Source: Chiloscyllium plagiosum
Lineage: Eukaryota
DNA: 64,000 nt
Direction: 5' to 3'
Assembly (NCBI RefSeq): GCF_004010195.1
Contig: NC_057751.1
Location: 19,149,462 to 19,213,461, forward strand
In this document: in pieces, positions 353-61,000 of the stretch
How positions within the stretch are numbered: position 1 is the first letter of the stretch
Layout: every line of letters begins with the position of its first letter
The notes under the pieces: generated by a model
What the model saw: the letters and a program-made list of their open reading frames with translations, nothing else
The model's database searches: none
Told to the model about the DNA's origin: nothing
Program-made: the position numbers and the translations under genes

Positions 353-504
353 GGTCAAGAGCCTCTCCCTGACGATGTTGTTCCATTTGATGCTACTTTG
401 GAAATCCCTGTGGAAGAGCAGCGTGCTGAAGCAATGATTCGTATTCAAGATGCACTCTTGGCTGGCAAAGCTGCAGAGGCTCTTGTGCTTCTCCGAGCTG
501 CACG
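353..504 (+). CDS. TIMELESS: TIMELESS exon ([51 protein letters not shown])
   Basis: ttttccag acceptor, gtaact donor, 152 nt, ends phase 2. Confidence 0.93.
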
Positions 505-6500: not shown

Positions 6501-9500
6501 TAGTCTTGCTGCCATTTTGATAGCTTTGGCAATCTTTACTTTTACACAAACTATCTCATCTGTACAAACCACATAGGACTTTGAAATGATCGATTGTTGC
6601 TCGGTTATTTGATTGCCAAAATGGATTTGGCCACTATGGTTTTGTGCTTGCTGACCAAGTTGTGTTTTTTTTCTGTTAAAGAAGTGGATGAGGCTGAGGT
6701 TAAAGAATAGTCCATTGGCACAAACACAAAGGTGCTTTGTTTTGCAGTTATGATAGTGAATGACTTTGAATTTTTACAGTGAAGCAAACAAAAAGGCTCC
6801 AACCTGGTCGTCAGAGGAAGAGGAGGAACTTGAAACACTGTATCTAAGATTCAAAGAGGAACAAGGAGGTATGTGTTGTGTTTCAGTCATTTTTGAATAT
6901 ATCCCATACCAAGCTCGCAACTCACTTTTCATCTCCCCAGTTGTTCTATTTAAATTCCACTGTAATCGATTTTTACAGCCCAGAAGATGGCGATTTGGAC
7001 CGTCACATCTGTGTCAGCTCTTTGAAAGATCTATCCGATTAGTCCCCGCTTCCCTGCTCTTTCCCTATGTCCTTGCAATATTCCCATCGGTGGAAGGATT
7101 GAGAACCAGAGGGCACAGATTCAGTGTAATTGACAAAAGAAGCAATGGAGACATGAGGAAAATCATGTTCACCACAGCGGTTGGCTAAAATGCACTGCCA
7201 AAGAGGTTCGATCAAGATTTTGGAAAGGAAATCGGATCACCTTTTGGCAATGGAAAATTTGCAGGGATATGGGGAATAAGGGTGGGAATGGCACTTGATG
7301 CTTTGCTCCTCCAGAAGGTCAGCACAGACACAACAGAATGGTTAGCCTTCTGTGCTGTAACTATTCTGTAATTTGAAGTGGGTTTTATGATCTCGATCTT
7401 TGTTGTGTAATGTTTAATTATTCCAGAGGTAATCTTGTATCCTGATGGTTGCATGCACACATTTGGAAAGCAAAACATAGCTATTCTGTTAGAAGAAAGT
7501 GAGGACTGCAGATGCTGGAGATCAGAGCTGAAAAATGTGTTGCTGGAAAAGCGCAGCAGGTCAGTCAGCATCAAAGGAGCAGGAGAATCGACATTTTGGG
7601 CATAAGCCCTTCTTCAGGATATTCTGTTGCATTGTTATCTTTCTTTTTACAGATAAAGATGTCATCGACAGTATCATGGAATGCATTAAAGATGATACAA
7701 GGACCAGGAGGCAGATTGCTGCCAAACTGGTTCAAATGAACCTGGTGGATAGTATAAGAGATTTAAAGCGTGTCAAGTAAGTGTTTGCAGTATTGTTTGC
7801 CTATTAAAGGACCACAGGAGAAAGTGAGGACTCCAGGTGCTGGAAATCAGAGTTGAAAAATGTGGTGCTGGAAAAGCACAGCAGGTCAGGCTGCATCTGA
7901 GGAGCAGGAAAATCGACATTTCAGGCACAAGCCCTTCATCAAGAATGTGGGGGGTTACAAGGGAGCTGAGAGATAAGTAGGAGGCTGGGGCTGGGGGGAA
8001 GGTAGCTGGGAAGACAATAGGTAGATGCAGGTGGGGGATGATACTGATAGGTCAGACGGGAGGGTGGAGTGGATAGGTGGGAAGGAAGATGGACAGGTAG
8101 GACAGTTCAAAAGGGTGGTGCCGAGTTGGAGGGTTGGACCTGGGATGAAGTGGGGGAGGGTGGGAAATTGGGAAACTGGTGAAGTCGATGTTGATATCGT
8201 GTGGTTGGTGGGTCCCAAGGCGGAAGATGAGGCGTTCTTCCTCCAGTCGTCGGGTGGCTTGGATTTGGCGGTGGAGGCGGCCCAGGACTTGCATGTTGTG
8301 GCAGAGTGGGAGGGGGAGGGCCACAGGCAGCAAAATCTTGGTAGTCAAGACTTTGAAAAGTGAAACCAGGCAGTAGAGTTCAGAAAACGATCACTAGCTG
8401 AAAACGTTTGGCTCACAAGGATGGTTATTTGTTTAGATTTGCTTCTTAATTTCTTCATCATTCCCTTCAGTATGAAGTTTGATTGTTTCACAGACACAGT
8501 TCACTGAGACTTCATGGTCATGAAATAATACATGTCTTTGTATCAATAATTATTCACATACAGGGTTACTTGTCCCCATGTGATGTCGCAGACTAAGGGA
8601 AGGTTCACCAAGCTATTGTTGATCATAGCATAAAAGCTCGTTTTAAAATAGGAAAGATGGAAGCAGGAGCACACACGTGCGCCCCACCCCGCCAGCTTAA
8701 ACTTTTAATCAGCTTCTTCTACCTGTCCCTCTGCGGTATTGTGAGCAAAGCATTCTGAGCCATACTGTGGGAAACATAGCCACCTTGTTTTGAAATTAGC
8801 TTGTAACATGTTGATTTTACTGCTTTAAGGAAAGGAACTAAGATTGTGCTTTGGAGAGAGGAACAGGAGATGGAGCTTGAGACATTGTTTGTGAAGTTCA
8901 GAGGATCAGATGGTAAGTTGTAACTAACTGGAATTTATTTGCTTCTGTTGTTTTTGAAAAAAAAACTCATCATAAGATAGCCTCTGACACAGAGCAAATT
9001 ATTAAGATTCTTCTATCACCACAAGCTATAACTTACTAACTCATTGTAAAACAGGGATCACATCTTCAGTCTGCCTGCCTGTTCTGAGTTAGTTCCTTGT
9101 TATCTTTACCATTTTAAAGCTCTTCAAAACAACATTCTTATTGTGAATGAAAACTCAATGAATTGTCTATAAACCTAAAACATTGTAATTTGAATGAAAG
9201 AGGCAAAATACAATTTGATGAAATTGATCTCTTTTATCTGAAGATATCCTTGGCAATATCATGAAAAACATAACCACCAAGCGATCCAGAGCCAGGATTG
9301 TTGATAAACTGATCAGCATGGGTCTCGTTTCTGACAGAAAAGAACTCTACAAGAAGCGAAGGAAATTAACAAAAGGAGCAAATCAGGTATTCTGTTTCTC
9401 AACACTCCCAGAGTCACTGTTGATTAAAAGTGTGTTGTGGTATTACAGTGGGAATTGGGCATGCTGGTCACATAAGAAACTTAGTGAAATAAAGTGTGAT

Positions 9501-15515: not shown

Positions 15516-15716
15516 TTGTAATGAATTTGGTTTTTGGAAATGGTTTTGAACACTGGATCGAAGATTCATTTTCGTGTTCATCAAATATTACAATTCTTCA
15601 TGCAAGTTTTGAAAGCAGTTCATTCACTGGGTGAAACAGTAGAATATATACTTTACATACAGTATTTTAAACCACCTGTGCTTGTACTCCCATTTTAAAT
15701 TATATTTTACAAAGCC

Positions 15717-15722
15717 AATAAA
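15717..15722 (+). terminator. Candidate proximal polyadenylation signal of TIMELESS
   Basis: AATAAA about 200 nt after the stop codon; a second AATAAA lies at 17085-17090. Confidence 0.5.
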
Positions 15723-17227: not shown

Positions 17228-17233
17228 TTTATT
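17228..17233 (-). terminator. Candidate polyadenylation signal of the myosin gene
   Basis: TTTATT on + (AATAAA on -); the nearest canonical hexamer I found downstream of the stop at 18917. Confidence 0.35.
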
Positions 17234-18916: not shown

Positions 18917-19040
18917 TTAGGGAACCTGGACCTCGAGTAAGTGACTGTTTTTCTTCTTGCACACCGGAATATTTCCATTTTTCCCTGTTGTTTTTACAAA
19001 CTTCACAGAGACTGTGGTTTTGTTGAACTTAAGAGAGAGT
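18917..19040 (-). CDS. MYO1A: Myosin-I last coding exon ([40 protein letters not shown])
   Basis: ttgcag acceptor, TAA at 18919-18917, 124 nt. Confidence 0.93.
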
Positions 19041-22000
19041 CTGCAAAGGAGAAAATTGGGCAAAGCTTTAAGCTGCAATAAAGCACTGTGTATGATACCA
19101 AATCGGTTTGTCTGTGATCTCTCTCTTGAGAAAGTTTCCTGGGAGTGTTTGATGGGGAATAGTAGAGAGGGAGCTGTACTCTGTGTATCTAACCCCATGC
19201 TGCCGCTGTCCTGGAGTATTTGGGGGAGGGGGAGCGGTGTGGAGAGGGTTTTACTTTGTATCTAACCCCCTGTCCCTGGGAGTGTTTGATGTGGGGGACA
19301 GTGTGGAGGGAGCTTTACTCTGTATCAAACCCCCTGTCCCTGGGAGTGTGTGATAGGGGGACAGTGTAGAGGGAGCTTTACTCTGTATCTAAACCCCTTG
19401 TTTGATTGGGGGGGGGGGGGGGGTGGGAGCAGACAGTATAGAGGAAGATTTACTCTGTATCTGACCCCATGCTGTCCCTGTCCTGGGAGTGTTTGAGGGG
19501 GCAGCAGTGTAGAGAGAGCTTTACTGAAAATGTGTTGCTGGAAAAGCGCAGCAGGTCAGGCAGCATCCAAGGAGCAGGAGAATCGATGTTTCGGGCATGA
19601 GCCCTTCATGCCCGAAACGTCGATTCTCCTGCTCCTTGGATGCTGCCTGACCTGCTGCGCTTTTCCAGCAACACATTTTCAGCTCTGATCTCCAGCATCT
19701 GCAGTCCTCACTTTCTCCTAGAGAGAGCTTTACTCTGTATCTAACCCCTGTGCCTGGGAGTGTTTGATGGGGGGACGGTGTAGAGTGAGCTTTACTGTGT
19801 ATCTAACCCCATGCTGTCCCTGTCCTGGGAGTGTTTGATGGGGGGACAGTGTAGAGGGAGCTTTACTCTGTATCTAACCCCATGTTGTCCCTGTCCTGGG
19901 AGTGTTTGATGGGGGACAGTGTAGAGGAAGCTTTACTCTGTACCTCACCCTGTGCTGTCCTGGGAGTGTTTGATGGGGGAAACGGTGTTGAGGGAGCTTT
20001 ACTCTGTAGCTAACCCCATGCTTTCCCTGTCCTGGGAGTGTTTGATGGGGGGGAACAGTGTAGAGGGAGCTTAACTCTGTATCTAACCCCCTGTCCCTGG
20101 GAGTGGGGACGGTGTAGAGGGAGCTTTGCTCTGTATCTAACCCGGTGCTGTCCTGGGATTGTTTGATGGGGGGGAACAGTGTAGAGGGAGCTTTACTCTG
20201 TATCTAAGCCCCTATCCCTGGGAGTGTTTGATTGGGGGGAGCAGTGTAGAGAGAGCTTTACTTTGTATCTAACCCCCTGTCCCTGGGAGTGGGGACGGTG
20301 TAGAGGGAGCTTTACTCTATAACTAACCCCCTGTCCCTGGGAGTGGGGGACGGTGTAAAGGAAGCTTTACTTTGTATCTAACCTCCTATCCCTGGGAGTG
20401 TTTGATGGGGGGACAGTGTAGAGGGAGCTTTACTCTGTATCTAACCCCCTGTCCCTGGGTGTGTGTGATGGAGGGGGAAACAGTGTAGAGGGAGCTTTAC
20501 TCTGTATCTAACCCCCTGTCCCTGGGAGTGGGGAACGGTGTAAAGGAAGCTTTACTCTGTATCTAACCCCCTATCCCTGGGAGTGTTTGATGGGGGGACA
20601 GTGTAGAGGGAGCTTTACTCTGTATCTAACCCCCTGTCCCTGGGTGTGTGTGATGGGGAAACAGTGTAGAGGGAGCTTTACTCTGTATCTAACCCCCTGT
20701 CCCTGGGTGTGTTTGATGGGGAAACAGTGTAGAGGGAGCTTTACTCTGTATCTAACCCCCTGTCCCTGGGAGTGGGGGACGGTGTAAAGGAAGCTTTATT
20801 CTGTATCTAACCCCCTGTCCCTGGGAGTATTTGATGAGGAGACAGTTTAGAGGGAGCTTTACTCTATATCTAACCCCGTGCTGTCCCTGTCTTGAATAGA
20901 TTGCTTCTCCATTCCTCAATAACAAAACATGAAGCTGAAGAACCTGACAATGATAAAAGAACAGCATTGGGTTTGAATTGATCTTCATCTGCATCAAATT
21001 GATTTGTTGTACTTACTCATCCTGTATCTCAAGGTTTATCCTCTGTTGGGTTGTGTCCAATATTGAGCGATGCAGTTTGGTAGTGAGCTCCACAAGATGG
21101 TCACTGTTTAACAGCAAGTCTCCCTTCACTCCAACAGAGGAGTTCTGGAAGGGTGAAGAAATAAAATACATTTTTTTTTTCATTTAAGTCACTTGATTTG
21201 AAAGCAAAATTCCTCTGTCAAAGCTGTACTTTTATAATTTGGAAGGTAGGGTTATTATTAATTTCTAAAAATAATCACTTTCCTGATTTCATACTTTTAA
21301 ACAACTGACTGAACACATTCTTTAAAATGCTACTGTTGCCTAAGATTTTGTTGCAAACATTCATATGGCTTTGTTTTCCTGTGCTTAACATCCCTTCTTT
21401 ATGCTGAACTTACTATGTTCAGAAAGTATTCGTGCTTCAAGTCATAGTTATTTTGAACTGTATTGCTCAGCATACAAACTGTTAATAGGATGCTGATAAT
21501 TGTGGCTGGTAAGTGTTGAACACCACTATGCAATAAAAGATCAAATCTGCATGTTTATTTTAATAGTAATACTGTTGACCTGGGCTCGGTGCATTTTATG
21601 ACTCAAATGATCTTTTATGTAACTGCTGTGCTCTTCCAGCACCACTAATCCAAAATCTTATGTAACCCTATTTAGTGTCAAGCAGCTGGATGGTCAGTAT
21701 TTTCTCAGACTGGTATCAATACAGCTGACTAGCAAAGAGTTGCCAGGGACAACTTTGTCATCAAACATCAAATTATTTCCTTGCTGCACTCCATTTGGTA
21801 CAGGTCCGATTCTAAACCAAGCAGAGAAGGGATGAGACTGTTATCTCGCACAGCCGCGTTTCAAATGGGAGCAGGGCTGAATGACATGATACGCTTATTA
21901 TTTTTCATACTGTTCACGAACCTTGGCATAATTCATTCATCGGCATTTAAGATACTGCTCACCTCCACTATATGTAGCGCAAATAGTCCGTCTTTACACT

Positions 22001-28000: not shown

Positions 28001-31000
28001 GATTATACTGTAGTTTAGAATGTAAAACTGTATAATACTGATGATACATGCTGAAGGATTCTGATAACTCTTTTAAGAAAACAGGCATTTACTTCCAGAT
28101 ACCTGTCAGGTCAGGTGCCTGTTTCTATCTAAACATTTTTGGGGTGTGAAGGGAGGTGATAGCATGAGCACAGAGAATCCATTAGGAAAGCGGAGAGACA
28201 GCACAGAGACAGTGAGAGCATGGGGAACAGTGAGGGCATTAGCCAAACATAGACAGCAGGAAAACAAGATGGATACAAGCGTATAAAATAGGAGCAGTCA
28301 GGCCACTCAGCCTCTCATACAATAAGATCAGAACTGAACTATTTGTCTGCATTCCTATCTTCCCCCAATGACCTTAGATTCTTGTCAAGAAAGGGAATCA
28401 ATCCAGATCTGCCTTAATAAATATTCAATGATCCTGCCTCCACCACATTGTGAGGCAGAGAGTTCCAACCTATGAGAAAAACTTCTCCTCATCGCTGTCC
28501 TGAACGGGTGTCCCCCTTGTTCTAGACTCCCCCAAAAGAGGAAACATTGTTTCCACATCTACCTTATCCAGACCAGGCAGGATTTTATACACTTCCATGA
28601 AATCACCCTATCTCCTCTGAACCATTTCCAACCTTTCTTAAATAAGAAGATCAAAATGGGACCCAGTAGGTGAGATGTGGTCTCACCAATGCCCTGTATA
28701 ACTGAAGCATAATGTGTTGGCTTTTTATGTTAAATTCCCTCTCATGATAAAGGCAAGCATCCCATCAGGCTTCCTGATTAATGCAGTACCACATCCCAGG
28801 AGCAGCAGTGTTCCTAGATCCACGCAGCCCAGCTTCAGAACCACTGACTTCGGAAGGAAATGAAACAGACTAAATTGCAAGTGAGCATATCTAACAATCC
28901 TACCAATCCTTCTCTCGCATTCCTGAACAAGATACAAGTAGTTTGAATGCTAATCCCTCTCAGCCCAAGCCTCTAATCTGCCTTGGTCTAGTCAGTTTTA
29001 AGTTGACCCAGTGAGGCACAGTGTAGGTGGGAACAGGGCCTCCCAAGGGAGCACAGACAGATTCAGTTATTAATAATAAGGGTGGGAAATAGAGTTCAAT
29101 CTGAACTCATCCACATTAGATCAGCAAAAGGGGAGTTCAGAATAGTGACAGAATACTGATGGTGGTGTAGCAGGTGTCTGTGTATACAGATTACCAAAAG
29201 CTAATGGGCGGTCACAGAGCAAACGGAATGCTAACCTTTTCCAAACAAAAATCTCGTCAGGTAATTCGCACACTTGGGTTTGTCGGAGTTTGCGGTCTGC
29301 AAAGTGGCTCCTGCATGTAACTAACAACACATTCGGACTGTATTCACTGGGAGCTCAGAAGAGCAAGGAGGGAGAATCTCATAGAAATCTGTAAAGTTCT
29401 AACGGGACTAGATGGGGCAGTAAACACAGGAAGGAGGTTCCCGACAACTGAGTGGGGGTCCAGAGCCAGGAGATGGGGTAGGACTGAGATGAGGAGATGT
29501 GTCTTCACCCAGAGAAAGTTAAAAATCACACAAGACCAGGTGATAGTCCAACAGGTTTATTTGAAAATACAAGCTTTCAAAGTGCTGCTCCTTCGTCACT
29601 AGTTACCTGATGAAGGAGCGGTGCTCCAAAAGCTTGTACTTTCAAATAAACCTGTCGGACTATCACCTGGTGTTGTTTTTTAACTGCGTCCACCCCAGTC
29701 CAACACCGGCTCCTCCATATCATGTTTACCCAGACAGTGGAGGGTTGGGGGGGATGGACCCTGGAGGATTCTCTGCCACAGCAGGTTGGGACCAAGACAT
29801 AGAATGTTTTTGAGAAGGACTTTGATATAGTTCTTAGGGGGAGAAAGGAATTGAAGGGTATGGGGGGGGGGAATGAGATGGACGATCAACTGTGATCGTA
29901 TTGAACGGGGAGCAGGAATCGAGGGGTCGAATGGCCTGCTCCTGATTTCTGTGTTTCATTGGCTGTAAAGCTCTTTGGGAAATTGTGTGGTCAATCAGAT
30001 CATCTGCTTCGGAATGATTTTTGATGAGGGCACTGGAGAGAAGGGCCTTGTTGGTTTTTGAGATTGTGGCGATTAGATCTTTCATGTCTGTCTGAGGGGG
30101 CAGAGGCAGCCACTGATTAACAGTTCACACAGCGTAGCAACCCCTCAGTCAGCACTGATTTATGTTCCTGTCCCTGGAACTGAACTCGTGATCCTCTGAC
30201 TTGAGTGATAAATGCTTCCCAGTGAGCCACAACTGCCTGAGATCCAGCTAGGCTCATAAATATGTCACATTAAAAATGACACATGTTAAAATGTAGCACA
30301 AACTGCCAAGAAGTGCAGCAAGTAACGTGGGGCACGCAGTTTATTCCAGGAGCAGCAGACCAAAGGCAGTATTGCCATCGCGAACCCTTTTACCTGGTAA
30401 CCATGCCAATAAGCTGCAATGATAGAGGCAGCCTCAGCACGTCGCTTCTCCTCCCGGAGATCTCTCTGGGTTTTGCGAACCTACAATAAGAAACAGTGAT
30501 CTTACTCCATGAAGCCTGGAAAGATTGAGGGGTCTGCAGGTGCAGAGAGGTGTGCCGACACAGGTTCATGAAAATAACTAGGAGTTAAAATTGAAATTTA
30601 AAAACCACAACTTGCAATTTGACAGAACCTTTAACATCATTAACATCCTGAGCTGTTCACAGCAGCAGAAATCAGATGATACATTGACCGGACGTTTGGG
30701 TCACCCGCCAGAATCTCTCCTCAGGCCCAGAATCAGAGAAACAGGTTTTCAGGAGCGTTTTAAAGGAGCAGACAGACAGAGAGATGTTGACGGGGATATG
30801 ATGGAATTGCAGGCCCCAAACACCAACCCATGGCCCACAGTCTTCCAGGCAACGGAAGGTACAGCCACCAATAGCCAAGTGATAGAGATAGAAGGGAAGA
30901 GGCCGGAATTGGAGCAGCACAGAGATAGGGAGGAGGTGTCGGGGGCTGGAGGGGGTGACACACACAGATAGGGAGGGGGGTGACACACAGAGATAGAGAG

Positions 31001-34000: not shown

Positions 34001-37000
34001 GTCTTTTAAACATTCTAATTGTACCCACACCCACCACTTCCTCAGGATGTTCATTCCACACGTGAATTCCCCCCCCCCCCGCCCCCACCCCATGTAAATA
34101 AATTGCTTCGCAGGTCTTTAAATCTCTCTCCCCTCACCCTAAAAATGTGCCCCCAGTACAGAAATCGCCCATCCTGGAGAAAAGGCAACAACCATCAAAT
34201 GTATCTAAACCCCTCATTATTTCATAAACCCTCTATCAGGTTGCCTCTCAACCCCCTACACCCCAGTGAAAAAAGTCCCAGCCTATCCAGCCTCTCCCTG
34301 TAGCTTAATTCCCAGCAACATCCTGGTAAATCTCTTCTGAACCCTTTCCAGCTTAATAATATCCTTCCTGTAACAGGGCGATGAGAACTGGACACAGTTC
34401 TCCAAAACAGGCCTCACCAACGTCCTGTAGTATGCACTTCACAGTTCTGAGGAAGCAGTTCTTACCGGTCATTCCCCTTCCAATTTGGCCACGTCTGTTT
34501 GCAAAGCATCTTGTACCGCTGTAGGCAGGGCTTGTAGGGGTGTCGATACGCATAGCCTGCCCTTCGCACCCGCACGTTCTCCATCAGACCCAGGTACCAG
34601 ACCTGCGACTGCACCAGCGTATCCACAAACTTGTTCGGGGACTTGGTGTCATTGGGTTTTATGCATCTGTGAAAGGTTAGCACAGGGGAGGGTGACAATT
34701 GGTTAAACGTTTCAAGAGAACGATGTTGAGATGATACAAGTACACTGGGCGGATACTGCTCACTGTCCTGATCTAGTCTTCAGCCCCAAGCCAACATGCC
34801 CAGCTCTTCCGAAGTGAGGTTAGTAGGTCACCCAGTTGAACGGGTACCTGAGCGGGTAATGCTCCCACCATCACTCGCTTTCTTTATTGCTGTAATTCCG
34901 TGTCTAACTTTAAGTAATGCCAGCGAGCTGAGCAGTTCTGCCAGTCTCCTCCAGGTGGGCAGAATGCTTTAAACATTCACTGGCTGCCAGTTCGAGGGGG
35001 AAACTGACTGCAACAAACCCATGACCAACGGGTCTCCCCCACCACGGCCGTGAGCTTCAGGAATATAGCATCGAATCCATACAGTGTGGAAGCAGGCCAC
35101 TCAGCCCATTGAGTCTGCCCTCTGAAGAGCATCCCACCAAGTCCTCCACCCCAACCTTACCCCAGTAACCCTGCGTTTCCCATGGCCAATCCACCCCAAC
35201 CTGCACATGGCCAGACTGTGGGAGGAAACCGGAGCACCTGGAGGAAACCCACGCAGAATATCCACGCAGACAGCCAGTCACCCGAGGGTGGAATCGAACA
35301 TGGGTCCCTAACGCTGTGAGGCAACAGCGCTAACCACTGAGCCACCGTGCCACACTTACTGCCAAATCAATTGCTCGATTTCTAACTGGACAACCACTCA
35401 ATCAAGGGACAATATGGGAAGGGTCCTACCTGATGTAGTTCGGGTTCTTCACCAGGAGATTCTTCATGAGGATCCCTACAGAGGTCTTGAACTGGGAGCC
35501 AGCGGTGGGCGGCCTCTTCAGCAATGTCTTACTTGGGTTCCCTTCAGAGAAAAGGGATTTGATGAGCTTGTGCTTGGCCTGCCACATTGCCTTGGACAGG
35601 TCACGGTACAAGAGGTCATTGTTCTTGTCTAAGAACTCCGTAACGTTGTATGTCACCTGGAAGAAGGAGCATAAAAATGAATGAGGGCGTTTTCCCCTGG
35701 CTCCTCTCTGTTGCGATTGCTCGCTGCTGTTGGGTGCAGCTTCTCAGTTGCCATTCACTCTCTCAAGGAGAAAGTAAGAACCGCAGATGTGGGCGATCAG
35801 AGTCGAAGAGTGTGGCGCTGGAAAAGTGCAGCAGGTCAGGCAGCATCCGAGAAGCAGGAGGATCCTGATGAAGGGCTTATGCCCGAAACGTTGATTCTCC
35901 TGCTCCTCGGAAGATGCCTGACCTGCTGTGCTTTTCCAGCACCACTCTCTCGACTCACTCTATAGAAGATCACCTGAGTAAGTATTGGTCCTGTGGAGAG
36001 GTTCGAAATTACACCGTATGTGTGATCCTGACTAGGGGCTCTTCATATATTGGAAATGAAACTTTAGATATCACCAGTCTGCACAGATTAGTATTATACA
36101 GAGTCAAAAACGAATTCACTGCTATCTGCTGGCTTTGAAAATCCTACCCAGAAATGTGATGCCAGTTCTAAATTTCAGTGCTGAGCTGATGCTGGTCCAC
36201 AGTAGGTAGTGTTTTGGCACAACATAGTGTGCCAACACAGAGTCCTGCCGAGTTTGGCTGTGAGTATAAACAGCTCCACACATCACAGATGGTGCACTGG
36301 AAGATGCCAGGTAGAAATCAGGCAATTTCTCTGTTCAGCAACGAACATTTTCATATCCATGTCAGAGGATTGTGGCTTCAAGACCCACTTCAGAGACTTC
36401 AAAACAAACGCCAGGCTGGCCTTTCAATGTAGGATCAAGGGAGCGGGCACTGTCGGAGGGTCAGCGCTGAGGGAGGGTCAGTGCTGAGGGAGTGGGCGCT
36501 GTGGGAGGGTCAGTGCTGAGGGAGTGGGCGCTGTGGGAGTATTACTGCATGGAGCAATGTACTCACCCTTCCTGCATAGTGCTGCACCCGGAAGCAGCTG
36601 TCTGTCAGGGTTGTGTCAGTGATGAACTTGGAATTCATTGTCTCCTTGCTCTCAAAATGCTGATGGCTAGAAAAGACCTGGTTTAATTTCTTGAGGAAAG
36701 TAAACTCAGTGACGGGACCTGGCCGCAGACATTCTTCATCCAACATCGCCAGGATGCCTTTCTTACTCTGCAAAAGAACAAGCAATATCCCAGCTCATTT
36801 GCAAGGCCAGCATTATCTTTGTGTTATTTGGTTCCTTTTCCTGACCCTAGCCTTAATTTCTAATCACACTTCCTCTCGGACCATTGGTACGTGCTTGGCT
36901 ACAGTTTTGTGAGCTCTAGATGCTTTCTTATACTTTAATGAAAAGGGAGAGTGGCATGGTGGCTCAGTGGTTAGCACTGCTGCCTTATAGCCCCAGGGAC

Positions 37001-43000: not shown

Positions 43001-46000
43001 AACCATGACTCTGTATTGCTTGCTCCCAGGTCTCTCGGTATCACTCCTTAGATTTCTTTTAAATGTTATACTTCACCTGAGCAACAGATAATGTTGTCAT
43101 CACTTTATCCCCTTTGGCTTCCACAGTGCGTGAGCACAGTGCTTGGTTGAGAATGGACTGATTGAGACCAATCAAACTGCAGATTTCACTCAGTACTGCA
43201 CAGAAAAACAAACACCAACACTTTTAAACTCAACTCTCAGAATGCAAGAAACGTGCAGACATTAGTTGACAGACCTCCCTCTGTGTCAATATATGTGCAT
43301 CTTCCCTACAAGTGATTGTCGTGGGGACATCACAGCCAGGTTTCTCCCAGCAGGCTTTGCTATTGGCCCTCAGAAGGTTCTGGGTGGGGAACAGTAAAGA
43401 CTATGTGGAAGATAAGCTTCAACAATATTGACTATGAAGGTGAGATACAGCAGTTAGATTGTGTGTTGATGCCTTGTCCTTGGTTGGGCTGCTGTAGGAT
43501 TATTCCTGTCCCTGTCCAAACAGCATGACCTGATAGTACTGACCCAAATACCACCAGATGAAGGAGCAACTCATCAACTTAGCTCCATATCCTTAGGAAT
43601 GTAGGAACAGGAATGTGGTGCCACTGTTTAAGAAGGGTGGTAAGGACAAGCCAGGCAACTATAGACCAGTGAGCCTGACGTCAGTGGTGGGCAAGTTGTT
43701 GGAGGGAATCCTGAGGGACAGGATGTACATGTATTTGGAAAGGGTAAAAACAATGACTGCAGATGCTGGAAACCAGATTCTGGATTAGTGGTGCTGGAAG
43801 AGCACAGCAGTTCCGAGGAGCAGTAGTACTGCCTGAACTGCTGTGCTCTTCCAGCACCACTAATCCAGAATGTATTTGGAAAGGCAAGGACTGATTAGGG
43901 ATAGTCAATATGGCTTTGTGGGTGGGAAATCATGTCTCACAAACTTGATTGAGTTTTTTGAAGAAGTAACAAAGAAGACTGATGAGGGCAGAGCAGTAGA
44001 TGTGATCTATATGGACTTCAGTAAGGCATTCGACAAGGTTCCCCATGGGAGACTGATTAGCAAGGTTAGATCTCATGGAATACAGGGAGAACTAGCCATT
44101 TGGATACAGAACTGGCTCAAAGGTAGAAGANNNNNNNNNNNNNNNNNNNNNNNNNNNNNNNNNNNNNNNNNNNNNNNNNNNNNNNNNNNNNNNNNNNNNN
44201 NNNNNNNNNNNNNNNNNNNNNNNNNNNNNNNNNNNNNNNNNNNNNNNNNNNNNNNNNNNNNNNNNNNNNNNNNNNNNNNNNNNNNNNNNNNNNNNNNNNN
44301 NNNNNNNNNNNNNNNNNNNNNNNNNNNNNNNNNNNNNNNNNNNNNNNNNNNNNNNNNNNNNNNNNNNNNNNNNNNNNNNNNNNNNNNNNNNNNNNNNNNN
44401 NNNNNNNNNNNNNNNNNNNNNNNNNNNNNNNNNNNNNNNNNNNNNNNNNNNNNNNNNNNNNNNNNNNNNNNNNNNNNNNNNNNNNNNNNNNNNNNNNNNN
44501 NNNNNNNNNNNNNNNNNNNNNNNNNNNNNNNNNNNNNNNNNNNNNNNNNNNNNNNNNNNNNNNNNNNNNNNNNNGGGCATGGATAGGATAAATAGACAAA
44601 GTCTTTTCCCTGGGGTTGGGGAGTCCAGAACTAGAGGGGCATAGATTTAGGGTGAGAGGGGAAAGATATAAAAGAGACCTAAGGGGCAACTTTTTCACGC
44701 AGAGGGTGGTACGTGTGTGGAATGAGCTGCCAGAGGATGTGGTAGAGGCTGGTACAATTGCAACATTTAAGAGGCATTTGGATGGGTTTATGAATAGGAA
44801 GGGTTTGGAGGGATATGGGCCGGGTACTGGCAGGTGGGACTAGATTGGGTTGGGATATCTGGGTCAGCGTGGACGGGTTGGACTGAAGGGTCTGTTTCCA
44901 TGCTGTACATCTCTATGACCCCATGACTCTATGAACAGGAGGAAGCCATGTCTGATCTGGGTCTTAGTTTTCATATTTTCAATTGAGTTCCAGCTTTAAC
45001 AACTGTTGGAGAGAGAGAGTTCCAAGTTTCCACTCCCTTTTATTTGAACAGAGGAGCAGGTGAGGTCATTCACTCCCTCAGGCCTGCTCTGCCATTCCAG
45101 ATCATTGTTAATCATGTCCCTCAACACCATCTTCCTGACTATCCCTTGATGTAATTAGTGTCTAGAAAGCTATTGATCTGCATTGAGGCTGCTCAATGAT
45201 TGAAGTTGCACAAAGCCTCTGGGTACAGAATTCCAAGAATTCACCATCCTCTCAGAGAACATATTCCTCCTCAACTCAATCCTTACTGTGAGACGGTGTC
45301 CCCTAGTTCTACACTCCTCTATGCCCAGCCTCCTTCCTGCATCTCCTCTCCCCCCTCCACCCCGTCGAGCCCTGACAATTTTGTAAATTTCATTGAGACC
45401 TCTTCCCATTCATCTAAACTCCAGAGAGTTACAGATGCATGCGCCTCGATCCCTCCTACCATCCCAGGGGTCAGTCTGGTGTCCCTCCACTGTGCTCCCC
45501 TCTGTGCAGCGTAAACCCTCCCTTAGAACTGCATGCAATATTCCAGATGCAGTCTCACCAAAGCTCTGTACAACTAAAGTAAGACATTTTTACTCTGGTA
45601 CTATAAAACCATAAGATATAGGAGCAGAAATTAGGCCATTCAGCCCATCGAGTCTGCTCCACCATTCAATCATGGCTAATAAGTTTCTCAATCCTATTGT
45701 CCTGCTTTCTCCCTATAACCCTTGTTCCCCTTGATACTCAAGAACCTATCTATCTCCATCTTAAATATACTCAGTGACCTGGCCTCTGCAGCCTTCTGTG
45801 GCAATGAATTCCATCGACTCACAACTGTCTGGCTGAAGAAGTTTCTCCTTATCTCTGTTCTAAAAGGTCTTCCCTTTACTCCAAATCTGTGCCTTCGGAC
45901 CCTCGTCTCTCCTACCAATGGAAACCTCTTCCAACATGTCAAGGCCATTCAGTATTTTGTATGTTTCAATTAGATCCCCCCCTCATCCTTCTAAATTCCA

Positions 46001-49000
46001 TTTAGTATAAACCTAGAGTCCTCAAATGTTCCTCATATGTTAAGCTTTTTCCATTCCTGGACCATTCTTGTGAACCTCCTCTGAACACACTCCATGGCCA
46101 TGACATCCTTTGAGATATGGGGCCCAAAACTGCGCACAATACTCCAACTGCTGTCTTACCAGAGCTTTATAGAGCCTCAGAAGTACATCCCTGCTTTTAT
46201 ATTAAAGTCCTCTCAAAATAAATGCCATCATTGTATTTGCCTTCCTAACTACTGACTCAACTTGATGAAAGCCAATGTACTGGCTGCATTTCCAAACTGC
46301 TTGCTGAACCTGCGTGCTAGATTTTGACTTCTGAATGTGGATACTCCAGTCTTTTTGAACACTGACACTTCCCAGTCTCTCCCTGTTTAGGGAAATACTC
46401 GACACCTCCATTTCTCCTTCCAAACAGGGGAATCTCAGATCTTGCCACATTACACCTGCCCATTTTATGTGAAGAGGTAACAAAACCAGAAGTTGCTGGA
46501 AAAGCTCAGCAGGTCTGACAGCATCTGTGGAGAGAAATCAGAGTTAACGTTTCAGGTCAGGAGACCCTTCCTCAGACCCTTTCTCTCCGCAGATGCTGCC
46601 AGACCTGCTGAGCTTTTCCAGCAACTTCTGTTTTTTTTTGTTTCTGAGTTATAGCATCTGCAGTTCTTTCAGTTTTTATTATGTGTCATGGTGCTCCCTG
46701 AATGAAGGGCTTTTGCCCGAAACGTCGATTTTCCTGCTCCTCGGATGCTGCCTGAACTGCTGTGCTTTTCCAGCACCACTCTAATCGAGACCCTGCTCCC
46801 TGAATGGCCTGGCATTAATTTGAGATTTCTGTTACTTGTTCTGGTCTCGTACCACACCAGAGAAGATAGTTTCCTTTGGTCGACCCTACTGAATCTTTTA
46901 ACGATTTTAAACACTTCAGTCAAGGGAATACAGGCAAAACCTATGAGACCTATCCTCATAATTGAGCCCATTTTAGCCTTGGGATCCTTACCTTTCGTAG
47001 CGAAGAGTGTGGTGCTGGAAAAGCACAGCAGGTCAGGCAGCATCCGAGGAGCAGGAAAGTCGATAGCCCTGATGAACGGCTTATGCTTGAAACATTGATT
47101 CTCCTGCTCCCCAGATGCTGCCTGACCTGCTGTGCTTTTCCAGCGCCACACTTTTCGACAATGATCTCCAGCATCTGCGGTCCTCACTTTCTCCTTACCT
47201 TTAGTATCGTCAATGTAGCATCGTTCCATGCCAGTCGTCTGAAATTCTGACTTCAGCGTGATGTTGCCAAGTTTAAGTACGACTGCAACAGTCTCCATAA
47301 TGGAGTCCACCTCAGCGTTACTGAATCCGATGACCTCCATGGCAGTCTGCAATACAAGCAGTCAGACATCCAATGCAGTAATTGTGGATGGTCGCTTCAT
47401 TTTAGCTCTGGAAAACAACTTGGTCAGAGCTCCACGAGTTCTCCAAATGTCACTCGGTGTAACCAGAATCAACCATAGTAATAATATCAATTTGACCTCG
47501 CTGGTTGCTAAGAATGCAGAAAGATCTTTTAAAAATTGTGCCAACTGCCAATGGAATCACAGAAATTTACAACACAGAAGGGGACCATTTGGCCTATGTG
47601 GTCCACCCTGCCCCTTCAAACAAGCATCTTCCCCAGTGCTACTCTCCTGCTTTTACCCCATGTCCTTGCACCCCATTTCTATCCAAATAACCATCCAATG
47701 CCCCTCTTGAGTGCCTCAATGGAACCAGCTTCCATCACATTTCCAGGCAGTACATTACTAACTCCTCACTGGGTGAGTTTGCACATCACTTTAAATCTAT
47801 GTCATCTTGTCTTGTTCTCTTCACAAGTGGGAACAACTTCTTCCTATCTACTCTGTGCCAGAGATAGGTGAAAATCTTCCCATGGTTCAATGCAGCAACT
47901 CTAATTCAGGAGATAATTATGAACTTTATGTTCGGGATTACACAATGCATCAGACCACAAATGTTTATTGATTTATTTTATTGTTGAAAAGTTACATGCA
48001 CATATGTGTCCAGTGTAATGAAATCATCGCATTTTAAGTGTACAACCTTGTGTATACTTTAGCTTGCGTTTGCCCATCTACTTGAAGGTCCCATTTTACA
48101 ATTGAGAAGGATATTCACATAAAAGCAGAAAGAGCTCGCAATTAAATTGCACCTTTTACATCGTCAGGATGTTCCAAAGCATTTTGCGGCCAATTAAGTA
48201 ATTTTTAAGTGCAGGTTGTAGTTACGTATGGCAAAAGCAGCAATCAACTTGCGCACAACAAGGTATCAGAAACAGCAAACAACAATAAAATGTTCTGCTT
48301 TCAAGATGTCAGTTGAGGGATACCTATCTTCCAGATCACTGGAATTTCTCTGCTTCCAATAGAGGCCGTGGGATCCTCTATCCCCACCTGAAGGGGCACT
48401 CAGGGCGTCAATTGGAAGACAGCACCTCGAACAGAGCAGTGCTCCGATTTTGTCAGCTGGCAGTGTCAGCTGAGATTGTCTGCTCAGGTTTCTACAATGT
48501 CACTTGAACCAACAACCTTCTGACCAGAAATGAGGGTGCGAACCACTGAACCGTGCCCTGACACTCGATTATTAAGTTAATTTATCTTAAAGAGTACATT
48601 TTGATTGTATGACATTTGTGAGGTTAAGTGTATTGAATACGTTCAGGTTTCTCAGTATGCCTATGTTTGCGCTGGCTCAAGCAGTTCATGCAACTGGTTT
48701 GTCTTTGGTCTCTTTAAAGCACTAATTTATGTTCCTATAGAAAGGCAAGATGCAAGTTCATGCCCTCAGAGCTCCATGCTGTTATGATGCCACCCTGCTC
48801 TGCATATATTAGGTACAAAATACACACGACCAGGAGCAGCAGTAGACCATTTGGCCCTCTTCAGCGTGCTATACCATTCAATAAGATCTGATTACACTTC
48901 ACCCCCACATTCCTGCCTATTCCCTGGTAACCTTCCCCTTCCCTCCCCTGTCCCGTTCTTACCAATAATCTATCCATCTGTATCTTTAAAATATTCAAGG

Positions 49001-52000
49001 ATCTTTTCAGAAAGAGTGTTCCAAAGACTCACCGCCCTTTGTGAGAAAAAGTCTCGCTCCTAAATGGGCAGGCCCTTTTTTTTAAAACAATGACACCCCT
49101 ACCCCCTGCTCCCCCAATCCCCAGCCCCTTGTGTTCGATTCTCCCATAACAGGAAACACCCTTTCCAACATCCCTCCCATCAGCATTCTGTTTGTTTTGA
49201 TTAAGTCACCAGCTGATACAATTCTAGTCTGTCCAACCCTTCCTCTTAAACCCATTACCCTGCCCATTCCAGGAATCAGTCTGGTAAGGCTTCTCTGCAC
49301 TGTCTCCAATGCACTAACATATTTCTTTCAATAAAGTGGCCAGTGTAAATACTACTTGAGATGCAGCCTCACCAGAGTCCTCTATAACCGAAGCACAACC
49401 TCCCTACTTTTTACATTCAATTCCCCTTGCAATAAAATATAACACTCTATTTGTCTTTTATTTTTTAGAAAATCTAAGAGCAATAGGAGTCAAGGTAGAA
49501 TTTCATAACCGGGAAAGGCAGTATATTTAATGGCATTTAATGCAGATTGTCTTGGGTACAGTGCTTAACTGGGCATAGGCAATTAGCCTCTGTCTTGGTG
49601 AGAAATGTGGTGCCGGTCTGGTGATATTCCACCAGATTCCATCGTCACCCTGAACAAATTCTACCGGCACAAGAGTGTGGAATGAAACAGCATCCAGTGT
49701 TAACTGAAAAGGCTAGACACCCGCAGACACCTCAGATACTTTAGATGCATCTGAAACAGTCCTCGTACATGCCAAACACACCACATTCAGTCTGGACACT
49801 CTGCATACAAACCCCGGTAAATCCATTTCAAGAGACAAAATACTATCTTTGCTTTCCCTAGTTCCCCATCTTGCAGGATAATGGGGCGGGGGGAAGAGGG
49901 GGGGGGTAGCATTTACACACTTCATTTCCATATTTACATTGGAGGTTGGCAGGATGTTATGGGGAATAAATTTTGCCTGAGCCTGTGTACCTTCAATACT
50001 CTGCAGGAGCCATGCTGTGTAACCTTATCACTCCCTTTCAAAACACAAGTCACTTACTTTAACTGCGGTGAAATTGGTGGCATCGTTGACTCCATTTAAT
50101 GTTGTTGTGTCTGTGTTCAGGTAGGTGTAATGATTGCAGTCCGGTAGCACCTTCAGATGCTCTGTGGAGTAGAAACGTAGAGGATGATTGCTGTGACAAT
50201 TTCTACTGAGCACTTGTATTTAATAATGTGGAAACACAGCAGCGTGCTGCAATGCCCCACAGCATTGTGCCAAAGTTCAGGCTAGTCATGTCGATGATTT
50301 CCCCATTGAGTGTCATCACTTGCACGTTGGAGGAGGACAGGATGAGTTTACCACCCCAATCCCCTGACCAAATATGTGAAAATCCAACAGCTTGCATAAG
50401 CTAAGGCTTACCATAATGAGCAGCAACTGAAGTGAGGTCCTAGGAAGTGTGGGTAGAACCACACCCTCTGGTCACTAAGGGACTTCCTGAATGTCTGATA
50501 AGATTGGTATGGAGATGCCGGTGTTGGACTGGGGTGGACAAAGTTAAAAATCACACGACACCAGGTTATAGTCCAACAGGTTTAATTGGAAGCACTAGCT
50601 TTCAGAGCGATGCTCCTTCATCAGGAGGAACAGAGGGATCTAGGTGTGCAAGTACATAGATCCCTCAAAGTTGCCACCCAAGTGGATAGGGTTGTTAAGA
50701 AAGGACATGGTGTTTTGGCTTTCATTAACAGGGGGATCGAGTTTAAGAGCCGCGAGGTTTTGCTGCAGCTTTACAAGTCCCTGGTGAGACCACACTTGGA
50801 ATGTTGTGTCCAGTTCTGGTCACCCTACTGTCGGAAAGGTACAGAGGCTTTGGAGAGGGTGCAAAGAAGGTTTACCAGGATGCTGCCTGGACTGGAGGGC
50901 TTGCCTTATGAAAAAAGGTTGAATAAGCTTGGACTTGAGAAAAGTCCAGAGAGAAGAGACCTGATCAAGGTATACAAAATAATGAGAGGAATAGATAGAG
51001 TCAATAACCAGAGACTTTTCCCCAGGGCAGGATTGACTGGTACGAGAAGTCATAGTTTGAAGATATTAGGAGGAAGGTATAAAGGAGACGTCAGAGGTAG
51101 GTTCTTTATGTAGAGAGTTGTGAATGCATGGAATGCGTTGCCAGTGGTGGTGGTGGAAGCAGAGTCATTGGGGACATTTAAGCGACTGCTGGACATGCAC
51201 ATGGATAGCAGTGAGCTGAGGGGGGTGTAGGTTAAGTTATTATATTTTACATTGGGATTAAATCTCGGCACAACATTGTGGGCCAAAGGACCTGTTCTGT
51301 GCTGTACTTTTCTATGTTCTATGTTCTATGTTCTATGTTTTATAACCTGGTGTTGTGTGATTTTTAACCTAATAGGATTGGACATTGTGAACATCAACAG
51401 TTTTGAAAGTATGTGAGATACCTCAGAGTAATGTGTAGAAACGCTCTGACCCTATTTCTGTTTATAAAATGTTCAACTTGAAATGCTTTGCCCTCTGATT
51501 GTATGCCTGGCATGGAATGCGTGTTATAAATATTAAGACACCCAAGAGTGGAACATGAAGTATGGGGACAAGTTGAGTTTTGTCATAAATTCTGTAACTT
51601 TTCAACTGGAAATGGTGGTAATATACCTTGGGAAACTTTCTGAATAATATATATTTTGGGGGGAAAAATTGACTGCTCACAGCAGGGACACTATCCGTTA
51701 TTTGGACAAGGATACACAATACGCTCTGTCCCGGAACTAGATCGAGTGGAATTACAAAACGGTCAGAATGGGATGGAGGTATAGAAAATGGAAAGACAAA
51801 CAATACTCACTGAGAAGGTCAGGGGATCCTCCAGCCAACAGCTGGTAGAAGATATGGAAGTTCCTCTCTCCTTTCAGACGTTTGACAACACGAGATTTCT
51901 CTAGAAGATCTGAAACAACATCCAATCCATCAGAACTCAAAGTAGATCCATACTAAATCCAGGTTTGTTTCTCTCCCCTTTTCTGTCAGGTTTCCACCAG

Positions 52001-58000: not shown

Positions 58001-61000
58001 TCATGTGATACTGATCAACACACCAATTAACCTAGCCTAATTCATTTTGTATTACCTTGGGATCCACCCTATCCTTGGTTTGGTATAAGCTATGAATACG
58101 CATTGGATCCTTGGGACGCCAAGGGCTTGAAATCATTCCTAAAGTAGTATGCCCAGAATTGTACACAGTACTCCTGCTGAATTCCAAACCCAAAAAAAAT
58201 CACGAAGGTTAACATAACTATCTCTCCATTGCACTCAATTGTGTTATTAGTACATATCCCAAGTTGTTTCATTTAACAAGAATCAGAGTAAAAATTGTCT
58301 AAATCCCAATATTTTCTATCCTTCAAAATAAAACAAAAATGTATAAATCCACCACTTTGAAAAAAAAACCCATGACATTCCATGTGATGATTGGGTGGAC
58401 AAAAGACTTTCCTTTAACTCTGACACTGTAAACAGTATTCTTCCAAAATGAGGGGGCACAATCACAAGGGTCACGAAATACAAAAGAACTACTGTACCCA
58501 TGAGTGACAATGCCTGGCACCCACCTATCCCTATGGTTATGTGCATGTTCCTTCTGTACATCTCTATGACTCTATGACTCTGACCTCACTCAGCATTTAT
58601 AGAGTCGTAGAGTCATAGAGATGTGCAGCATGGAAACAGACCCTTTGGTCCAACCCGTCCATGCCGACCAGATATCCCAACCCAATCTAGTCCCACCTGC
58701 CAGCACCTGGTTCATATTCCTCCAAACCCTTCCTATAAGAAAAAACAATAACTGCAGATGCTGGAAACCAGAGTCTACGTTAGAGTGGTGCTGGAAAAGC
58801 ACAGCAGTTCAGGCAGCATCTGAGGAGCAGTAAAATCAGTCTATTCCTGATGAAGGGCTTTTGCCTGAAACGTCGATTTTCCTGCTCCTCGAATGCTGCC
58901 TGAACTGCTGTGCTTTTCCAGCACCACTCTAATCTAGACCCTTCCTATTCATAGACCCATCCAAATGCCTTTTAAAGGTTGCAATTGTATCTGCCTCCAC
59001 CACATCCTCTGGCAGCTCATTCCATACACGTACCACCCTCTGTGTGAAAACGTTCCCCCCTCACCCTTAACCTATGCCCTCTCGTTCTGGACTCCCCGAC
59101 CCCAGGGAAAAGACTTTGCCTATTTACCCTATCGATGCCCCACATAATTTTGTAAACGAAAACGTTCCCCCCTCACCTTAACCTATGCCCTCTAGTTCTG
59201 GACTCCCCAACCCCAGGGAAAAGACTTTGCCTATTTACCCTATCGATGCCCCACATAATTTTGTAAACCTGTATAAGGTTACTCCTCAGCCTCCAACGCT
59301 CCAGGGAAAACAGCCCCAGCCTGTTCATGTAGCTCAATTCCTCCAACCCTGGCAACATCCTTGTAAATCTTTTCTGAACCCTTTCAAGTTTCACAACATC
59401 TACCTGCTGTTTCCTATCCTTCACCTTGTTAAACCTTACATGCAGAATCTTGGCTCAAGCTTTTTGGATGACACACTTGGCAGGGGGGGGGGTAGGGCAA
59501 TAATTTAAAAAAATGATAATTGAGGTCAGTTCGGCAGAATCACCCTCAATTGAAGCCTCTTGGCAATTATTCACAAGGTTATTTTCAAGACCATTAATTT
59601 GCTTTCTGTTTTCTTGGTAATTTAAACGCATTCATGGTTAGCAATTGCTTGCCCAAAATTTGTAATCTGACAACCGATCCCATATCGCCCAAAAAATAGC
59701 AGCAGGAATGTGAGCGTTCTATGTAAACAGAGAGGTTTACTGTCCAGTACGCCCACTGGTCGCTGCTGCCTCGGATTCTGGGCCTGCTCTTCTCCAGAGT
59801 AGGATCATAACCCACTGCCACAGCAGAGCAAGGCTAGATTCCTGGAACAGTAGCCATCCAGGAGTTCCTTTACAGTTTGGCTCACGATTCTCAGTCCATA
59901 TATGGAAGGTTTTTCGCCCTTGCTCCTGTGTGGCTGGCATGATTTTGCTGCCAAATTTCAAGTCCCTGTTCTCTGCAAATCACTGATCAGATATCTATTT
60001 GCCACAACTTGCTGCTGTTACCTTCCTGCCAGCTGTTTACTGCTGGCCATTTGCTGACTGTTTGCGTCTGATCATTTGTTATTGGCTGTTTACTGCTGGC
60101 CATTTGTTGACTGTTTGCGTCTGATCATTTGTTATTGGCTGTTTACTGCTGGCCATTTGCTGACTGTTTGCGTCTGATCATTTGTTATTGGCTGTTCGCT
60201 GCTGGCCATTTGCTGACTGTTTACGTCTGATCATTCGTTATTGGCTGTTCGCTGCTGGATTAGTGGTGCTGGAAGAGCACAGCAGTTCAGGTAGCATCCG
60301 AGGAGCAGTGCTGCTGGCCTTTTGCTGACCATTTGCTGCTGACTGTTTGCTGTAACCTGGTTACTAGTGACCATCTGCCAACTGAACTGCTTGGTGTTTA
60401 CCTTTGCCAGCTGATTCCTCTATAGACTCTCCATGCTGTTTGTTTCCTGTTACTAGCTGTTTGCTGTCAGCTAACTGGACTAGACCTTGCTTCTGCTTTC
60501 TGTTGCTGGTTCCCTCAGGTCTCTGTTGCTGTGATCTCCTCATCTCGTGCGTGAGGACTGTAAATATATTATTGAAATGAAAATATGCTTTTTTTTTAAA
60601 TGATTGCAGTCCGTGGTCCTTGGGGCATTTTCCTGGTTTTGTTTTTTGGCATCACAAACAAGCCTATTAAAGACCATGAACATCACCTAAAAAAAGCTGT
60701 GCATTTGAAACTGTACAACACATAGGGTAGCATCTGGAATATGAACACAAAACAGCAGTAAAAAATACCAGGAATCCATGTCTTGAAAACAGAATTCAAC
60801 TTAATCTCAGAGAAACAGCAATTCTCATTATTATCAAAGAGATATTTCCTCAAAATATACCTCCTTATCATCTTTGACCTGGTATTGATGGAAGACCTGT
60901 GGGTGTATGCTGATTTCAATTGGATTTGTCAAGATTTTGGGCATTGGCTCTCAAACTGATAGGTTGTGCCAGTAAGGTAGGAACAGATGCACCATTGAGA

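Follow-up and report, generated by a model that had tools for sequence, protein, structure and literature searches.

Repeats built around the core of a hammerhead ribozyme are scattered over a 64,000-nucleotide stretch of the genome of the bamboo shark Chiloscyllium plagiosum (NC_057751.1, positions 19,149,462 to 19,213,461; the whole stretch is called the window), which raises the question of what carries these motifs, how they were inserted and whether their ribozymes are under selection. The motifs are very probably minimal type I hammerheads carried by the terminal repeats of Penelope-like elements of at least three lineages. Cutting is predicted to require the dimer, likely with the help of the element protein, and most of the dispersed copies are likely dead.

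Hammerhead motifs in the window

The original prediction had recognized eight motif sites of three families, A to C, sharing one hammerhead architecture. All eight are present, two of them one base away from the position first given (47069 instead of 47070, 46575 instead of 46576). Core positions are counted from C3 as zero and window coordinates are those of C3; the predicted cut falls just before +28 in family A, +29 in B and +30 in C. The sites are:

35865, plus strand: family A, core complete, H17 is T
58847, plus strand: family A, core complete, closing pair G10.1-T11.1
7617, minus strand: family A, G12 changed to A
7942, minus strand: family A, C3 changed to T
47069, plus strand: family A, stem II and palindrome both broken
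50624, minus strand: family B, core complete, closing pair G-T
29607, plus strand: family B, G12 changed to A
46575, minus strand: family C, core complete

The expectation of about eight cores holds for the sites but not for complete cores, since a descriptor of the minimal type I hammerhead (CUGANGA and GAAA...UH, without the stem III loop) is passed by four of the eight (35865, 58847, 50624 and 46575). A fifth match, at 26702 on the minus strand, fits no repeat family and probably arose by chance; 50 windows resampled from a Markov control contained a mean of 0.02 matches and at most 1. The families extend beyond the sites first named to a copy at 46698 on the plus strand with a one-base insertion inside CTGATGA, to partial cores at 19524-19719 and 29598 (minus strand) and to core-less pieces at 33759, 43746, 60255 and 21621. 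Head-to-head inverted insertions, 150-200 bp long and bordered by direct repeats, contain five of the eight named sites. The C/T alternatives written into the family definitions (GCTC(C/T), GACCT and CGT(C/T)) lie on CpG dinucleotides and match CpG decay; together with the G12-to-A changes they represent such decay rather than compensatory change. An Rfam scan of the window at E<=1 returned 11 matches, all of them microRNA hairpins under the gathering score and none a hammerhead family, the curated models being those of canonical hammerheads with stem III and loop contacts.

Copy number in the genome

The predicted very large genome-wide population was borne out. In the 3.56-Gb genome, exact patterns found 24,055 (N7 = T) and 68,462 (N7 = A) family A cores, 23,406 family B cores and 889 family C cores, 116,812 over the four patterns, with each reversed control yielding 0. 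A sample of 140 evenly spaced 10-kb stretches (1.4 Mb) of large contigs contained 99 descriptor matches, corresponding to approximately 251,000 genome-wide (bootstrap 201,000-302,000); 62 of them retain the G-C closing pair as well as the palindrome (approximately 158,000 genome-wide). Terminal-repeat copies with or without a core numbered 426 in the sample, or about a million in the genome. Published counts, obtained with differing descriptors, are about 4,000 minimal hammerheads in coelacanth and 9,000 in Xenopus (PMC4209133) and, as the closest count found, 126,247 retrozyme motifs in axolotl (PMC7229834).

The carrier element

Coding sequence upstream of the cores identifies the carrier. 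In family A, the coding end of a GIY-YIG endonuclease stands 230-380 nt upstream of the core at 7942; this end (8169-8318) is identical in 29 of 42 residues (E 3e-17) to the piece of another stretch, L024, that bears the Pfam GIY-YIG. In stretch L158 a single frame of 725 residues holds a reverse transcriptase (RT; RVT_1, E 2.8e-6) and a GIY-YIG domain (E 6.5e-4), followed by a family A core. Both matches are under the Pfam cut-offs, and two more RT pieces from the same search attain that of RVT_1. The closest named homologues of the frame are unannotated bamboo-shark proteins (82-91% identity), and none of the 120 homologues listed bears an element name. The family B core lies after a different GIY-YIG, identical to that of family A in 39 of 107 residues (36%), and two family C copies (L082, L287) lie after a third. 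RT and C-terminal GIY-YIG thus share one frame in family A, and in B and C the GIY-YIG end was found but no RT was seen. The GIY-YIG end just upstream of the core in each family, together with the L158 frame, leads to the assignment of the families as terminal-repeat hammerheads of Penelope-like elements. The terminal repeat also occurs at the 5' end of the element, as seen in 289 family A1 repeat-to-body junctions in which tail is followed by body; no such junction was present among 65 family B cores.

A CX4CX2C linker between RT and endonuclease is present in A and B. As a CX2-5CxxC linker marks the Neptune and Nematis clades (PMC8557442), the element is likely, to judge from its sequence, of the Neptune type. 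A Pfam GIY-YIG search of the genome gave one weak match among the 150 scored of 14,403 candidates, and a PDB search by sequence gave no match. Among 12 stretches with long open frames, RT and endonuclease share a frame only in L158, the others being gap-broken; the longest apparent open frames are mostly assembly gaps. Runs of N often adjoin or part outward-facing element ends (L152-L163 and many of L001-L030), as is expected if long inverted insertions break the assembly.

Conservation of the fold and decay of the copies

Across lineage representatives, the 11 bases of the catalytic core are constant. Stem II, 4-5 bp long in families A-C, covaries between lineages (pair 10.3-11.3 is G-C, A-U, C-G or U-A), which agrees with the prediction of several mobile lineages with one fold whose stem II changes yet remains paired. 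At the first pair of stem I (2.1-1.1), lineages A and B have C-G, C and E have U-A and D has A-U, and the palindrome 15.2-16.2 is either CG or GC; the comparison comprises few, related lineages and does not account for phylogeny. Lineage D (L152:7531, minus strand, and 7715, plus strand; L243; L187), which is absent from the window and possibly represents another Penelope clade, has a 7-bp stem II and a T as the extra base.

Frequencies of the extra base and of the palindrome were obtained from 88 descriptor matches in 120 sampled stretches, for which Markov controls gave 1-2 matches. The extra base between positions 9 and 10.1 is present in 87 of the 88, as an A in families A-C and a T in D. 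The palindrome is CG in 48 matches, GC in 19, CA or TG in 19 and otherwise in 2, such that 67 retain CG or GC and 19 more are its CpG-decay forms. The closing pair is G10.1-C11.1 in 91 of 106 family A, 24 of 43 family B and 14 of 28 family C copies, the remainder being mostly G-T, again read as CpG decay.

In 44 family A copies anchored on both sides, differences occupy 16 of 440 cells at the ten core positions outside CpG versus 127 of 1,540 in the flank, and common variants occur in 0 of 10 core columns versus 5 of 35 flank columns, base composition being unmatched between the two. The same comparison of B and C at a looser cut-off was discarded because indels shift the columns out of register. 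G12 forms part of a CpG and decays as the CpG sites next to it do: it is gone from 9 of 44 family A, 5 of 19 family B and 9 of 28 family C copies. All 11 core bases are kept in 123 of 232 core-spanning copies. These patterns are read as purifying selection on master elements and neutral decay of dispersed copies. The covariation of stems I and II and of the palindrome between lineages is consistent with selection on the mobile masters; host-level selection on the copies is unsupported because they decay at CpG sites, including the catalytic G12. The selection on ribozyme function that had been proposed would act on the masters; for the dispersed copies it is not supported. The motif is also not novel, since PMC4209133 gives the same four traits for the minimal hammerheads of Penelope-like elements.

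Structure of the insertions

The copies in the window are as follows, those with inverted arms being listed without a strand:

7491..7619, minus strand: family A terminal-repeat copy with tail, core 7617-7590 with G12 lost, in an intron of a Timeless-like gene
7816..8318, minus strand: longer family A copy with GIY-YIG C-terminal coding end (8169-8318), followed by a 3' untranslated stretch, core 7942-7915 with C3 lost, terminal repeat and tail
19524..19719: family A head-to-head insertion, arms beginning at +5 and +14, CTGA half of the core absent, tail on the right arm only, direct repeat of 17 nt
29516..29722: family B head-to-head insertion, core 29607-29635 (plus strand) with G12 lost, minus arm with a decayed partial core, tail confined to the right arm, direct repeat of 10 nt
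33718..33855: family B remnant lacking a full core, plus arm from +17 with a short inverted partner
35767..35948: family A head-to-head insertion, complete core 35865-35892 (plus strand), left arm bearing the tail and beginning at +28, the first base past the predicted cut, direct repeat of 11 nt
43746..43871: short family A head-to-head insertion, no core, tail on the left arm, inside a reverse transcriptase piece of the long interspersed element (LINE) type
46482..46678: family C head-to-head insertion, complete core 46575-46546 (minus strand), tail on the right arm only
46697..46794, plus strand: family A copy, CTGATGA box with a one-base insertion
47006..47195: family A head-to-head insertion, decayed core 47069-47096 (plus strand), tail on the right arm only, direct repeat of 15 nt, adjoining a myosin-head exon
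50511..50625, minus strand: tailed single copy of family B, beginning at -1, complete core 50624-50596
58741..58931: family A head-to-head insertion, complete core 58847-58874 (plus strand), tail-bearing left arm beginning at +28, direct repeat of 13 nt, in a LINE-type copy
60255..60309, minus strand: family A 3' end fragment without core

The copies finish at two 3' sites, near +85 and +125 and thus approximately 35-40 nt apart. Among 81 head-to-head pairs of the sample, the tail is present on one arm in 71, on neither in 8 and on both in 2, whereas the expected one-tail share is 0.50 (p 6e-13). Direct repeats of at least 9 nt (9-18 nt) flank 56 of 87 pairs from sample and window, compared with 2 of 87 shuffled pairings. 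Within pairs, it is the tail-less arm that extends further 5' in 34 cases and the tail-bearing one in 16, and 21 are ties.

The 5' ends are concentrated at the ribozyme. Of 254 copies that reach +2, 176 end at -9..+2 (A 101/150, B 30/56, C 45/48), with alignment ends uncertain by a few bases and the C figure possibly inflated because most C references carry only 5 nt of upstream sequence. The stopping rate per base is 0.045-0.078 in this interval versus about 0.01 or less further upstream, and 43 of 243 A copies reach past -16. Solo copies show the same peak, and the upstream flanks of solo stubs are mostly unrelated, a common flank occurring in 3 of 52 stubs of family A, in none of 13 of B and in 6 of 34 of C. 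Ends at the ribozyme cut site are few, 16 among 380 copies. In stretch L230 a minus-strand copy starts from +29, the whole core having apparently been deleted between short direct repeats at -4 and +29; a deletion of this sort can also simulate an end at the cut site. The ribozyme showed no sign of recombination between subfamilies: all 20 tailed copies with A1 upstream sequence have the A1 tail, and 6 copies with A2/A3 upstream sequence have A2/A3 tails. As upstream and tail subfamilies always agree, there is no support for intermolecular jumps.

A model of insertion

The ends suggest the following sequence of events. The endonuclease would nick both target strands some 9-18 nt apart, and uncut element RNA would serve as template for two cDNAs, each primed by one nick and each begun at a different one of the two internal start sites. 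Synthesis would usually halt within a few bases of the ribozyme 5' edge, and joining of the two cDNA ends would yield a head-to-head insertion with one tail. An uncut template and a stop at the ribozyme 5' edge would account for the many stubs of 90-130 nt that hold the whole core. In the masters the core would be kept by selection, with cleavage processing multi-unit transcripts at another step, and the stubs would decay after insertion. Biochemical work on the green anole element describes similar reactions in vitro: both strands are nicked and extended, two internal RT starts bound the tail, uncut RNA is the main substrate, and cleavage is protein-assisted (PMC11167929).

The weakest step of the mechanism is the cause of the stop. 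Run-off at the 5' end of the RNA is favoured, although tentatively; a stall at a ribozyme-protein complex, or another cause, also has a substantial chance of being correct. An RNA start at the ribozyme 5' edge is favoured because an initiator-like motif lies over -6..0 in 37 of 44 copies of family A and 2 of 3 of family C, against a background of 0.012 per position, and because the Drosophila Penelope element has an internal promoter (PMC2377424). At the -4 edge, inspection by eye found no consistent match to a splice acceptor or a downstream promoter element. RNA reads were taken from two runs of one sample, one yielding 1,493 reads on the stretch and the other none. They map to both strands, the rise in depth at the -4 edge is that expected from the genomic copies, and in the run with 1,493 reads no read ends pile up anywhere, including the cut site. 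With depth following the genomic copies and no pile-up of ends, the reads do not decide the start or the cut site.

A more far-reaching combination is possible but doubtful: a protein dimer would prime both nicked strands on uncut RNA, each strand using a different internal start site, and synthesis would run off where the RNA 5' end coincides with the first base of stem I; the stubs would then represent stranded strong-stop-like cDNAs, and the shark would harbour one of the largest hammerhead populations known. In that case the ribozyme would make the RNA 3' end and would itself be the short terminal redundancy for a strand jump.

Several observations weigh against the assignment and the model. 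Stem I comprises 2-5 bp in its native context. Folding predictions for the 11 representatives of A1-E all place the active dimer above the best co-fold, by 3-22 kcal/mol (rounded), and all place it above two free monomers as well. Since in no case does the active dimer come out as the most stable fold, ribozyme activity would be weak or need help, in agreement with the low activity reported for minimal hammerheads (PMC4209133). An excess of ends at the cut site exists in family A (12 observed versus 4.9 expected, p 0.005; none in B and C); some element templates may therefore be cut, and stem I microhomology accounts for part of the excess. In family C, neither the linker nor the RT was seen in the stretches examined, the clade was assigned from one linker motif, and none of the 12 stretches with long open frames yielded an intact full-length element. 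Against run-off, the initiator-like motif is absent from B (0 of 19), and only 3 of 19 informative body-continuing A1 copies (4 by eye) start at -9..+2 versus 32 of 52 A1 copies in the sample; the body-continuing set comprised 20 of the 289 junctions, taken as the first plus-strand rows listed, apart from L029.

Alternative explanations

The motif might be kept mainly as a protein-binding or promoter signal of the element, with cleavage being incidental. The rarity of cut-site ends and the lack of a read-end pile-up in the single RNA run over the stretch would fit this explanation, as would the anole experiments, in which catalytic mutants left insertion in vitro unchanged and no RNA ends at the cut site were found (PMC11167929), and the success of Naiad elements without canonical hammerheads (PMC8557442). 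Against it, lineages with diverged flanks and proteins have all retained the 11 core bases, a triplet that can be cleaved and a dimer palindrome that covaries; furthermore, the anole ribozyme cuts when its protein is present (PMC11167929). A mere signal is thus unlikely, and a ribozyme maintained in the masters is preferred.

The hairpins might instead arise from fold-back self-priming of one cDNA or antisense template rather than from two primings, as has been proposed for inverted Penelope junctions (PMC3846280). The 16 pairs in which the tail arm reaches further fit the geometry predicted by this mechanism. However, a single fold-back cannot explain most pairs, given the 34 in which the tail-less arm extends further 5', and in several pairs both arms start from the same base. 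We consider two primings the better account and fold-back quite unlikely.

Still less probable is that the short and hairpin copies constitute a self-propagating non-autonomous element, similar to a retrozyme or a short interspersed element (SINE), that uses Penelope proteins. Stubs far outnumber long copies, one stub contains the ribozyme and both start sites, and bioRxiv 10.64898/2026.07.22.740005 traces retrozymes to Penelope terminal repeats. There are also a few tandem or internally deleted units of approximately 130-270 bp, each with a core (L084:1080-1370; C4:69006082 and 69006356, a 274-bp pair; L309; L315), which are candidates for retrozyme-like derivatives. Yet hairpin junctions vary between insertions, the copies are dispersed rather than tandem, short and long A1 copies have the same diagnostic variants by eye, and solo stubs rarely have a common upstream flank, all of which argues against such an element.

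That the dispersed copies are active ribozymes selected by the host to cut its transcripts is extremely improbable: about half of the core-spanning copies do keep the full core, intronic copies exist, RNA reads cover both strands and the insertions at 35865 and 58847 place the core on a long stem I, but G12 is lost at the CpG rate, a lone minimal motif without stem III shows no cleavage as a monomer (PMC4209133), and only 1 of 9 dimers was cleaved in bioRxiv 10.64898/2026.07.22.740005.

Surroundings of the copies

Exons of the Timeless-like gene extend over 369-13600 of the window on the plus strand (TIMELESS_C at 12030-12173, E 2.5e-14), and the copies with cores at 7617 and 7942 lie antisense within its introns. 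The myosin head exon at 47191-47343, on the minus strand, was recognized with E 1.4e-5, under the cut-off. A minisatellite with units of approximately 63-71 bp occupies 19226-20877, and the hairpin at 19524-19719 is inserted into it. LINE-type reverse transcriptase fragments, presumably CR1/L2-like, are plentiful (37365-37805, 43864-44130, 50586-55207). A small inverted repeat with a 9-bp unit at 58554-58628 is unrelated to the hammerhead families. Cleavage of hammerheads as dimers was reportedly described by Lunse et al. in 2016, according to the review PMC6765202.

Relation to known elements

The motifs closely resemble the minimal hammerheads in the pseudo-long terminal repeats (pLTRs) of metazoan Penelope-like elements (Cervera and de la Pena 2014, PMC4209133), with which they share a core without stem III, an extra base between 9 and 10.1, G10.1-C11.1, a palindromic 15.2-16.2 and the occurrence of several covarying families per genome, mostly as single truncated copies. 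The host group differs, the present one being a shark; no shark term occurs in the two of its three supplement files that were searched. Insertions of endonuclease-bearing Penelope elements (PMC3846280, PMC8557442) likewise combine RT and C-terminal GIY-YIG with a Neptune/Nematis linker and show head-to-head inverted copies, a tail of 30-40 nt at one end, target-site duplications and assembly gaps. Here, tail asymmetry and the distribution of 5' ends have in addition been counted; the pile-up at the ribozyme 5' edge does not appear in the passages of these sources that were compared. PAc, the Poseidon element of the green anole (PMC11167929), shares with the shark elements two RT starts bounding the tail, extension of both strands, an uncut RNA template and a weak ribozyme (here predicted). 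It belongs to a different clade, however, and in vitro showed no link between strand and start site, whereas here each arm has one start site. The non-LTR retrozymes (PMC7229834; bioRxiv 10.64898/2026.07.22.740005) also have type I hammerheads, a need for dimers in vertebrates and a proposed origin from Penelope repeats. They form tandem arrays with canonical motifs and circular RNAs, whereas the copies described here are scattered, carry minimal motifs and are in many cases inverted. None of the tandem arrays in the window contains a core, and tandem pairs elsewhere are rare. In a literature search that lay outside Dfam, Repbase, subscription papers and some supplements, no paper was found on shark Penelope hammerheads, nor on a 5' pile-up or a strong-stop model for Penelope. 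The kind of motif is already known; what stands out is the copy number and the end statistics in a shark genome.

What the hammerhead does in Penelope-like elements is considered an open question (PMC8557442). The shark copies carry a warning: in genomes of this sort, a count of ribozymes is for the most part a count of dead transposon stubs. At the same time, the cores estimated by sampling and the roughly one million repeat ends make the insertion mechanism testable by counting: the start site used by each arm, the point at which synthesis stops and the share of templates that were cut can all be counted.

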